Positions 48,739-49,239 of a stretch of 64,000 nt of DNA are shown one piece after another. The stretch is from Escherichia phage HMD-6. Where the stretch lies: the sequence record PQ505080.1; one strand, written 5' to 3'. The notes under the pieces are model-generated. The model did no database searches and was not told the origin of the DNA. It saw only the letters and a list, made by a program, of their open reading frames with translations. The position numbers and the translations under genes were made by a program. How positions within the stretch are numbered: the stretch's first letter is position 1; every line of letters begins with the position of its first letter.

Positions 48739-49239
48739 GTGAAAATTAAGATCTTTGCTATTATTTTGAGCGCACTTTTATCGCTGCCTGTTGTTGCAGC
48801 ACCAAAACAAAAAGTATATCACACCTGCAAGCCATCGGATACTAAGGAGAACATTCTGGCATGCAATATCTACAGGGAAGCCAGAGGAGATGGCACGATG
48901 GGTATGTTGGCATCTGGGTTTGCCACACTAAACAGGAAATCTCACCCTAAATACCCAGACACTATAAGAAAGATTGTCTACCAACCTAACCAGTTTTCGT
49001 GGACAAACCACGGCAAAACTTTTAAGGTGACAGAAAAAGATTCATGGGATCACGCTAAAAGTCTTGCAAAGATGCTTCTAAAGGTCTATAATAACAACCA
49101 TGTTGCATACATGGCTATGGATATAACAGGTGGAGCAACACACTATCATACAACAAAAGTACGACCGGAATGGGCAAAAAAGATGCAGAGGACAGCTCAA
49201 TTCGGGAGTCATATCTACTACAAGGAGCGCAATAAATGA
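48739..49239 (+). CDS. secreted cell-wall hydrolase (SleB/Hydrolase_2-like)
   Basis: N-terminal signal peptide 'MKIKIFAIILSALLSLPVVAAP'; 'CNIYREARGDG' resembles the SleB-type hydrolase motif; GTG start with GGAG RBS. Confidence 0.5.
   Translation: MKIKIFAIILSALLSLPVVAAPKQKVYHTCKPSDTKENILACNIYREARGDGTMGMLASGFATLNRKSHPKYPDTIRKIVYQPNQFSWTNHGKTFKVTEKDSWDHAKSLAKMLLKVYNNNHVAYMAMDITGGATHYHTTKVRPEWAKKMQRTAQFGSHIYYKERNK

Follow-up and report, generated by a model that had tools for sequence, protein, structure and literature searches.

An exported SleB-type cell wall hydrolase upstream of rIIA in the rV5-like coliphage HMD-6, a probable auxiliary wall-cutting enzyme

Escherichia phage HMD-6 carries, directly upstream of rIIA, a gene for an exported cell wall hydrolase of the SleB/CwlJ family (Hydrolase_2; 48739..49239, + strand, 166 aa). 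The enzyme is probably a dispensable, holin-independent, periplasmic auxiliary that cuts the host wall and is made from the early/replication block. The analysis covered a window of 64,000 nucleotides (sequence record PQ505080.1), which was identified as DNA of a Vequintavirus, an rV5/FV3-like coliphage. The open reading frame had been called with exactly these coordinates in an earlier note on this DNA, and the gene call was borne out. The protein is the ortholog of rV5 gp2 and Bas54_0065, which are also 166 aa long, follow the same terminator (t003) and show the same 4-nt overlap with rIIA. The neighbours in rV5 and Bas54 are likewise those found here: a MoxR ATPase, a 126-aa acidic ORF, rIIB, and a PIF1-like helicase. 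Compared with rV5 and Bas54, the window represents a further isolate of the same phage group, and nothing of substance differs.

The assignment to the SleB/CwlJ-type hydrolases is concordant across Pfam, PHROG, profile-to-PDB comparison, the AF2 model, and Foldseek. Hydrolase_2 (PF07486) was matched at E=2.7e-19 (70.1 bits against a cutoff of 27) over profile positions 2-100 of 100, and PHROG 938, labelled "endolysin", was matched at E=1.9e-27. Sequences of the SleB crystal structures (4F55 and 4FET) were hit by a family profile at E~3e-22. In the Foldseek search against the PDB, these two SleB catalytic domains were the sole significant matches of the AF2 model (pLDDT 94.9), with a probability of 1.0, a target-normalised TM of 0.75-0.79, and about 23% identity in the structural alignment. 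Profile alignment to 4F55 and 4FET places the catalytic-motif codon GAA at 48877..48879 (+). It encodes Glu47 within Y-R-E-A-R-G-D, which aligns with the E in the Y-G-E-S-R-G-E motif of Bacillus SleB, where the catalytic residue is a glutamate. "SleB" denotes the domain family here and not orthology with Bacillus SleB, as the phage hydrolase has no N-terminal peptidoglycan-binding domain; its architecture is of the CwlJ type, a single domain, plus a signal peptide.

An exhaustive search was used to assemble the homolog alignment (a word-indexed search had given 10 proteins). E47, Y45, and R66 are unchanged in all 66 aligned homologs, and the motifs Y-x-E-x-R-G, N-R, and Q-F-S-W, together with W145 and H158, are kept across them. 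Two conserved cysteine patterns occur among the homologs; they are mutually exclusive, and both would suit an exported protein with disulfide bonds. A functionless remnant, catalytically dead or able only to bind peptidoglycan, would agree with the non-essential status of the Bas54 ortholog and with the specialised substrate of Bacillus SleB. The conservation of Glu47 and the motifs argues against it, as does purifying selection, indicated by 40-58% identity to T5 and among several phage subfamilies. Moreover, expression of the homolog CB7_83 in E. coli was reported to be toxic, with "data not shown" (PMC7344957). Loss of function is thus considered very unlikely.

Export and transmembrane (TM) segments were called from hydropathy, the -3/-1 rule, and comparison of homologs. 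The N-terminus of the hydrolase has an n-region with K2 and K4 and a hydrophobic core, IFAIILSALLSLPVV, with a mean Kyte-Doolittle (KD) value of 2.69. P17 follows, then V18-V19-A20|A21, which fits the -3/-1 rule; cleavage at A21|P22 is disfavoured. A cleavable Sec (type I) signal peptide is therefore predicted for residues 1-20 (MKIKIFAIILSALLSLPVVA, followed by APKQK; 48739..48798, +), and the predicted mature protein has 146 aa, a mass of about 16.9 kDa, and a pI of 9.85. Among 160 homolog sequences scanned, 144 start with a hydrophobic or lipobox segment. Export signals are kept in the orthologs of rV5-like, PVP-SE1, Av-05, Certrevirus, phi92-like, and T5 phages, and AXA-type sites are retained although the cores diverge. 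A signal peptide was also reported for CB7_83 (PMC7344957). The description of the protein in the earlier note as a SleB-like hydrolase with a signal peptide is upheld by the Pfam, PHROG, and structure matches, the fit of the n-, h-, and c-regions, and the orthologs.

Alternatively, the N-terminus could be an uncleaved anchor or SAR domain, by which the enzyme would be tethered and inactive until depolarisation, like P1 Lyz and R21. Such an arrangement would account for the avoidance of premature lysis despite early synthesis, and the PAK_P5 homolog has a TM-like N-terminal segment with no obvious cleavage site, where the protein in the window has a clear signal that is predicted to be cleaved. 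SAR endolysins are recognised by a weakly hydrophobic TM segment rich in Gly, Ala, and Ser and by the lack of a signal-peptidase site, and the hydrolase sequence differs in both respects. Its core consists of Leu, Ile, Val, and Phe at 10 of 17 positions and is not Gly/Ala-rich; a proline and the V-V-A|A site follow the core, and the orthologs retain their AXA-type sites. A SAR or anchor function is accordingly judged quite unlikely. Holin-independent export of a muralytic enzyme is nevertheless known from Lys44 of Oenococcus phage fOg44 and from the SAR endolysins P1 Lyz and phage 21 R. These are late genes and encode the sole endolysin of their phages. In contrast, the hydrolase of the rV5-like phages lies in an early block, is dispensable, and coexists with an essential cytoplasmic endolysin.

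The genomic position agrees with the claim of the earlier note that the gene lies just upstream of rIIA and not in a lysis cassette. It sits in the replication block between the MoxR ATPase gene and rIIA, and the 126-aa acidic ORF upstream of it has no hydrophobic N-terminal segment. The rIIA homolog (49236..51218, +, 660 aa) starts within the stop of the hydrolase gene (ATGA), and this 4-nt overlap suggests translational coupling; the rIIB homolog follows at 51229..52434 (+, 401 aa). A ribosome-binding site, GGAG (48730..48733, +), was read from the sequence 5 nt before the GTG start of the hydrolase. Directly 5' of the gene, the terminator scan found a GC-rich, rho-independent terminator-like hairpin, CCCCGC-TTCG-GCGGGG followed by ATTTTCTATTT (48703..48729, +). 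It is identical to t003 of rV5, listed with the same sequence and a deltaG of -16.0 kcal/mol (rV5 Table S4). The nearest promoter predicted 5' of the block of MoxR ATPase, hydrolase, and rIIA/B is of the sigma-70 type (TTGACT-17-TATAGT; 44549..44577, +) and equals P010 of rV5 (rV5 Table S4). The stretch from the hairpin to the start of the hydrolase gene contains no predicted promoter, and no late-promoter motif was found near the gene. The rV5 counterpart belongs to transcription unit 10-1-238-164, together with replication genes. A literature search for transcriptomes of Vequintavirinae yielded none that was usable.

The company of the rII genes raises a further interpretation, namely that the hydrolase is an early envelope-modifying factor working with rIIA/rIIB in superinfection exclusion, in anti-abortive-infection, or in wall conditioning for hosts outside the laboratory, rather than in lysis itself. 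Besides the translational overlap with rIIA, the order SleB-rIIA-rIIB is kept in Vequintavirus and Avunavirus; the order hydrolase-rIIA was found in Av-05, and the PVP-SE1 gene lies at the end of its record, which suggests the same for Seunavirus. In Certrevirus, the slot of the rII pair is taken by a small ORF with two TM segments, which overlaps the SleB gene. The predicted periplasmic location and the early block would also suit such a factor, and the hydrolase, rIIA, and rIIB are all dispensable on K-12, as conditional accessory genes would be. However, wall cutting is expected to ease and not to block the entry of a second phage, and T5, phi92-like, and PAK_P-like phages have the hydrolase without an adjoining rII gene. 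In addition, in the clinical-isolate HIDEN-SEQ comparison examined, the fitness change of bas54_0065 was not significant (log2FC -0.88, q=1). A partnership with the rII proteins is hence regarded as unlikely.

The preferred reading, an auxiliary enzyme, draws most on the lysis genes of the phage group and on transposon data. No classical holin-endolysin-spanin cluster had been seen in the window, and this is confirmed: tblastn with the endolysin, spanins, and holin candidate of a relative gave no match there. A lambda-R-type endolysin, homologous to LysECP26, adjoins the DNA ligase gene, and the i- and o-spanins adjoin TerL, all outside the window. Lysis functions are thus dispersed, as the earlier note had suspected. 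Scattered lysis genes have been described by Buttimer et al. (2020), in the rV5 paper, and in the LL12 paper, and lytic activity was demonstrated for LysECP26, an enzyme of the lambda type (PMC9728275).

HIDEN-SEQ on Bas54 shows which of the two enzymes is needed. The SleB-like ortholog bas54_0065, identical to the hydrolase in the window at 165 of 166 residues, was called non-essential with 32 of 36 TA sites hit and unusually high counts, whereas the lambda-type endolysin bas54_0202 was essential (0/24 TA sites hit) amid non-essential neighbours. A necessary lysis role of the hydrolase is contradicted by these data, and the SleB-like enzyme cannot replace the endolysin, since the former is dispensable and the latter essential. 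Dispensability on K-12 means that the phage can do without the enzyme in the laboratory; it says nothing of what the role is.

These data also bear on the view that the hydrolase is the main or a fully redundant endolysin, Sec-exported and holin-independent like Lys44 and activated when the membrane is de-energised. This view draws on the "endolysin" label of PHROG 938 and many GenBank records, on the combination of a muralytic domain with an export signal, and on the fact that the holin of the rV5 group was never positively identified. Canonical holin-dependent endolysins have no export signal, lie in a late unit or beside a holin or spanin gene, and are required for lysis and plaques. By comparison, the hydrolase has an N-terminal Sec-type signal, its gene belongs to the early/replication block instead of a late unit and has no holin or spanin gene beside it, and its ortholog was not required according to the published data on bas54_0065 and bas54_0202. 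Furthermore, the lytic activity has been demonstrated for the lambda-type enzyme. The view is highly improbable and has already been largely refuted by HIDEN-SEQ.

As for the holin, both two-TM holins proposed previously are dispensable in Bas54. The two-TM ORFs next to the SleB genes of PVP-SE1 and POP17 showed no meaningful similarity in BLASTP to rV5 gp129 or to ORF 29460 of the window, and tblastn found no copy of them in the window. A Pfam scan of the candidate holins returned only noise. The "holin" label carried by the SYGMH1 homolog of 40756..41205 was rejected, as that protein lacks any hydrophobic segment and its PHROG match is 6790 ("tail protein").

A role in entry had also been raised, with the hydrolase acting as a virion-associated lysin at DNA injection. 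Apart from the presence of a muralytic domain, the evidence points the other way. A Sec signal peptide is hard to square with virion assembly in the cytoplasm, and gp2 is absent from the virion proteins named in the main text of the rV5 paper. The gene lies outside the structural module, which has its own essential gene for a central spike/"tail lysozyme" and another for a DUF6950 "cell wall hydrolase". The suggestion is barely credible.

Two small ORFs among the fibre genes had been singled out in the earlier note as membrane proteins. The first (28002..28316, +, 104 aa; PHROG 5345, function unknown) is the ortholog of bas54_0037 and is encoded in a late operon. The TM segment described for it is borne out, with one clear N-terminal segment at residues 5-21 (KD 2.08), and its C-terminal part is heptad-patterned and coiled-coil-like. 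A hairpin ends its operon, after which a match to the rV5 late-promoter core (TGTTAAAATA; 28367..28376, +) equals P030 of rV5. The second (29460..29726, +, 88 aa), also a late-operon ORF, is the ortholog of bas54_0039. The ORF exists, is conserved, and is called a membrane protein in RefSeq and PHROG 1322, but the two TM segments claimed for it are weakly supported because its segments are weakly hydrophobic, the best 17-residue KD being only about 1.07.

In HIDEN-SEQ, bas54_0037 (1/20 TA sites hit) and bas54_0039 (0/19) were called essential. Transposon polarity or a role in fibre assembly would explain these calls equally well. As their Bas54 orthologs are called essential and the holins proposed previously are dispensable, the possibility that the fibre-operon membrane ORFs encode lysis proteins is slightly strengthened. 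Neither PHROG 5345 nor PHROG 1322 is a lysis family, an endolysin gene does not adjoin either ORF, and both have tail-fibre genes as neighbours in every lineage examined. Pfam found nothing at E<=1 beyond noise in the two ORFs and their homologs. T4 gene t is comparably placed with respect to tail-fibre operons. ORF 28002 was also considered as an i-spanin and rejected: the positive charges after the TM segment suggest that the C-terminal part is cytoplasmic, there is no neighbouring lipobox ORF, and the real spanin pair lies by TerL outside the window. A non-canonical lysis of rV5-like phages can be drawn from these ORFs, in which the essential lambda-type endolysin would be released by the protein of 28002..28316 and/or 29460..29726 instead of the proposed two-TM holins, with the SleB-like enzyme as a helper that is dispensable, needs no holin, and is linked to rIIA/rIIB. 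It is a speculative scheme with a small chance of being right.

If the hydrolase is an auxiliary enzyme, as preferred here, its gene would be transcribed along with the early/replication block by polymerase reading through the adjacent 5' hairpin, and the hairpin and the GTG start may keep its expression low. The protein would be exported to the periplasm without a holin, its signal peptide being cut after Ala20, and would probably cut the glycan strands of the host sacculus as a predicted lytic transglycosylase. We infer that its most likely role is to weaken or condition the wall, so that lysis would be faster or more robust in natural hosts or conditions. The main endolysin of the phage is the cytoplasmic lambda-R-type enzyme encoded elsewhere with the spanins, to which the SleB-like protein would be auxiliary. 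A free lytic enzyme in the periplasm early in infection should risk premature lysis. The terminator-like hairpin directly 5' of the gene, with no promoter predicted after it, is a second counterpoint.

Bacillus SleB requires muramic-delta-lactam, which E. coli peptidoglycan does not contain. The phage hydrolase also differs from it in facing a host with no spore cortex. Because the substrate of Bacillus SleB is missing from E. coli, the argument for a possible activity on vegetative walls is taken from distant relatives. In the E. coli periplasm, a SleB-fold T6SS effector, T6EC3, causes cell rounding and bursting, and its glutamate-dependent toxicity is abolished by E108Q (PMC11148199). The SleB of Zymomonas mobilis remodels the peptidoglycan of vegetative cells, and growth is impaired when it is overexpressed. 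Both carry SleB-type domains that act in the periplasm on the vegetative peptidoglycan of Gram-negative bacteria, and they make activity of the phage enzyme on E. coli walls plausible by analogy. T6EC3 differs in its delivery by a T6SS and in having a periplasmic immunity protein as its partner, whereas no gene resembling an immunity gene was recognised beside that of the phage hydrolase.

Related phages offer the closest parallels. CB7_83, CR3_087, PVP-SE1 gp243, and the Av-05 "endolysin" share 49-58% identity with the protein in the window and consist, like it, of a signal peptide and a single Hydrolase_2 domain. In Certrevirus, the overlapping two-TM ORF after the SleB gene has been proposed as a class II holin, and rIIA/B are absent; in the window, it is rIIA that the hydrolase overlaps, and no small TM ORF adjoins it. 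Homologs with about 35-42% identity in T5 (T5.083), T5-like, phi92-like/Phapecoctavirus, and PAK_P-like phages are also exported Hydrolase_2 proteins (T5: MKAALLLVAALTFSFSSQA|SHD), although their conserved cysteine pattern differs. Their genes are located in early or replication regions, as here. For instance, that of T5 is in the early region (PMC3326045), and that of PAK_P5 lies among DNA ligase and helicase genes. Papers on T5-like phages and Phapecoctavirus describe a canonical endolysin that these genomes encode separately.

The gene, its domain and signal peptide, its conservation in the subfamily, and the scattered lysis layout have all been published before. SleB-like homologs with a signal peptide occur in all genera of Vequintavirinae (Buttimer et al. 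2020), whereas the type of endolysin varies between genera. As the gene is annotated, its signal peptide published, and its ortholog dispensable in a near-identical phage, the finding in HMD-6 is an ordinary one. Several unrelated groups of large virulent phages, the rV5-like, T5-like, phi92-like, and PAK_P-like ones, all keep an exported SleB-type enzyme in early regions, and in rV5-like phages, T5-like phages, and Phapecoctavirus, it is additional to a normal endolysin according to the cited papers. Identifying the true lysis proteins of rV5-like phages would have some practical value, because this group is in wide use against E. coli O157:H7.

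What the earlier note observed holds, and its interpretation is right in part, but the SleB-like gene next to rIIA is a previously annotated and discussed, experimentally dispensable accessory gene. It occupies 48739..49239 on the plus strand, upstream of rIIA exactly as the earlier note described, and starts with GTG, with GGAG 5 nt before it. A terminator scan found, directly upstream, a GC hairpin of 6 bp whose loop is TTCG and whose tail is T-rich; this hairpin is the predicted terminator t003 (deltaG -16 kcal/mol) of the rV5 paper. The stop codon overlaps the ATG of the rIIA homolog (660 aa), and rIIB and a PIF1-like helicase follow. 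In rV5, the ortholog gp2 was already listed as a 'cell wall hydrolase' of 166 aa and pI 10 beside gp1 rIIA (Table S3 of that paper). SleB-like homologs with a signal peptide were later reported in all Vequintavirinae genera, were toxic on expression in E. coli (data not shown), and the subfamily was described as having no classic lysis cassette (Buttimer et al. 2020; PMC7344957). Later papers repeated the SleB-like annotation.

Within the window lie part of the structural module, the cluster of tail-fibre genes, a run of small leftward genes and the start of the replication block. In a database search, 47000-52000 showed 93-99% identity to more than 100 Vequintavirus genomes, including rV5, FV3, LL12 and BASEL phages, the closest being vB_EcoM_SYGMH1 (98.7%). 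Searches with 47000..52000 and the membrane ORFs also returned at least 16 MG0656xx records named 'Campylobacter phage' that are at least 90% identical to rV5-like coliphages. Probably, their host labels are wrong or the preparations were contaminated.

The domain assignment is consistent across methods. The protein matches Pfam Hydrolase_2 (E=2.7e-19) and also PHROG 938 'endolysin', and a profile of 66 homologs retrieves two crystal structures of SleB catalytic domains, 4F55 and 4FET (E ~3e-22). These two are also the sole significant PDB matches of the AlphaFold model (pLDDT 94.9). Y45, E47 and R66 are invariant in the 66-homolog alignment, and the profile alignment places Glu47 on the glutamate of the Y-G-E-S-R-G-E motif in SleB. 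Within the periplasm of E. coli, a T6SS effector with a SleB fold is toxic, rounding and bursting the cells, and changing the aligned glutamate abolishes this toxicity (PMC11148199). The SleB homolog of Zymomonas remodels vegetative peptidoglycan, and its overexpression is harmful. By analogy, these studies support, without proving, a muralytic activity of the phage hydrolase on E. coli walls.

At the N-terminus, two lysines precede a strongly hydrophobic core rich in Leu and Ile, after which come a proline and V-V-A|A. From this sequence, the hydrolase is predicted to be Sec-exported and cleaved after Ala20; a cut at A21|P22 instead would put proline at +1 and is disfavoured. Orthologs whose hydrophobic cores differ considerably still keep AXA-type sites, among them the predicted SFA|A (a second Vequintavirus cluster), VLA|K (PVP-SE1, Av-05), SFA|K (Certrevirus), AQA|E (a phi92-like phage) and SQA|S (T5.083). 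A hydrophobic or lipoprotein-type segment was present at the N-terminus of 144 of the 160 homolog sequences scanned. Two conserved, mutually exclusive cysteine patterns among the homologs are also compatible with an exported protein.

Dispensability was established in the HIDEN-SEQ preprint, a saturating transposon mutagenesis of Bas54 (phage MaxBurger, MZ501093). Its bas54_0065 shares 165/166 residues with the window hydrolase, has the same neighbours, and was called non-essential with insertions at 32 of 36 TA sites. rIIA and rIIB are likewise non-essential. In the comparison of K-12 with a clinical isolate that was consulted, bas54_0065 had a non-significant log2FC of -0.88 (q=1). The lambda-type endolysin bas54_0202 is essential (0/24 TA sites hit), and polarity is unlikely because both its neighbours are non-essential. 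Therefore, the SleB-like enzyme is not needed for plaque formation and cannot replace the endolysin.

In the K-12 competition, bas54_0065 had a mean of 916 insertion reads per TA site, compared with about 150-420 in its immediate neighbours (Extended Data Table 8). Loss of the hydrolase could be mildly advantageous in LB, or the counts could reflect insertion bias. Nearby, the gene of a MoxR-type AAA+ ATPase (47115..48299, plus strand) lies a few kb from one on the other strand (41992..43473, minus strand) for a 493-aa protein, which has a putative metallopeptidase domain, DUF2201_N, and a VWA-like domain, DUF2201. In the reference library of Bas54, neither gene is essential, yet in a clinical-isolate comparison insertions in MoxR were strongly depleted (log2FC -7.23, q=0), and so were those in the helicase gene bas54_0068 (HIDEN-SEQ).

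The lysis genes proper were located in the SYGMH1 and Bas54 genomes. A 156-aa lambda-R-like endolysin adjoins the DNA ligase gene, a TM/coiled-coil i-spanin and a lipobox o-spanin lie upstream of TerL; a two-TM protein of 78 aa was confirmed as well. None of these four has a counterpart within the window. The earlier note was thus right to see no lysis cluster there, because the dispersed lysis genes sit in the other half of the genome. Purified LysECP26, a lambda-R-type enzyme from an rV5-like phage, is lytic (PMC9728275). In the SYGMH1 record (MW883061), the o-spanin carries the label 'capsid maturation protease', and 'tail fibers protein' is the name given to a lipobox-like ORF of 68 aa that follows the endolysin gene. 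SYGMH1_20, homolog of window 40756..41205 (minus strand), is annotated 'holin'; this is probably a misannotation, as its product lacks any hydrophobic segment and belongs by match to PHROG 6790 'tail protein'.

Across the Vequintavirinae genera, the SleB-like gene is constant, whereas the endolysin type varies: lambda-type in Vequintavirus, a modular enzyme in PVP-SE1, a T5-like peptidase in CB7 and M15C in Septuagintavirus. T5-like, phi92-like/Phapecoctavirus and PAK_P-like phages encode exported Hydrolase_2 proteins too, within early or replication regions, and the T5-like and Phapecoctavirus members have a separate endolysin according to the papers cited for them. Av-05 keeps the SleB-rIIA-rIIB order of the window, and in PVP-SE1 the SleB-like gene lies at the record end. 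In Certrevirus, a 62-aa two-TM ORF and a 61-aa ORF replace rIIA/B between the SleB and helicase genes, the former overlapping the SleB stop codon (2923..3111 of the POP17 locus, L009). PVP-SE1 has a two-TM ORF of 53 aa immediately after its SleB gene (4465..4626 of locus L004); this ORF is unannotated, has a basic tail and is read in another frame than annotated gene 244.

The most likely mechanism is that of an accessory enzyme. Low-level transcription of the gene would come from the early promoter region near 44549, reading through t003. The hydrolase would then be exported by Sec, cleaved after Ala20, and make limited cuts in periplasmic glycan strands that may condition the wall. Lysis proper would depend on the essential cytoplasmic endolysin, the spanins and some holin. 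The earlier suggestion of a role in entry is unlikely, since the protein is exported and non-structural and the structural block has wall-enzyme genes of its own. These encode the central spike (6977..7654, plus strand; annotated 'tail lysozyme', essential in Bas54) and a DUF6950 protein (17708..18133, plus strand; BASEL 'cell wall hydrolase protein', non-essential in Bas54), both more plausible entry-associated wall enzymes than the SleB-like protein.

Two membrane proteins among the fibre genes had also been raised as possible lysis proteins. Both ORFs, 28002..28316 and 29460..29726 (plus strand; 104 and 88 aa), are genuine, and every Vequintavirinae genus conserves them. The 88-aa family also occurs in phi92-like phages, and the setting is in each case a tail or fibre module. 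ORF 29460 is only weakly hydrophobic. A strong RBS precedes ORF 28002, whose product has a single TM segment at the N-terminus and a heptad-patterned tail. This ORF is the last of its operon, which closes with a hairpin; a late-promoter motif then precedes the next fibre gene. Pfam scans matched neither ORF to a holin family. In phiTE (Certrevirus; L010 1684..2761) and KE23 (Seunavirus; L012 1650..2758), three consecutive membrane-protein genes follow the fibre chaperone gene and precede the next fibre gene: one for about 112 aa with a TM segment and coiled coil, one for about 152 aa (five TM segments) and one for about 86 aa. The outer two are the counterparts of ORFs 28002 and 29460. The window lacks the five-TM gene and has a second fibre paralog of 348 aa (28404..29450) instead. 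The short tail-fibre paralogs, 26351..27391 and 28404..29450, encode about 346-348 aa, and a fibre-assembly chaperone gene (27406..27990) follows the first.

In HIDEN-SEQ, the orthologs bas54_0037 (ORF 28002; 1/20 TA sites hit) and bas54_0039 (ORF 29460; 0/19) were called essential. Among those essential Bas54 genes of unknown function that were translated and scanned, a clear TM segment was found only in bas54_0037 and bas54_0110 (117 aa, N-terminal, outside the window), with weak ones in bas54_0039. The idea that the product of ORF 28002 or 29460 is a lysis protein is therefore alive. A fibre-assembly role, or polarity for bas54_0039, is at least as likely. The orthologs of both short tail-fibre paralogs were also called essential, whereas K-12 infection does not require several of the large lateral fibre genes. 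As for the proposed holins, the rV5 paper named gp89 as the lysin and proposed the two-TM gp129, set apart from it 'as in T4', as the holin. The gp129-like two-TM bas54_0164 (17/19 TA sites hit) and the two-TM 'putative holin' bas54_0115 (27/28) are both dispensable (HIDEN-SEQ). The single lead of some worth is the holin of rV5-like phages, given that the fibre-operon ORFs have essential orthologs and both proposed two-TM holins are dispensable.
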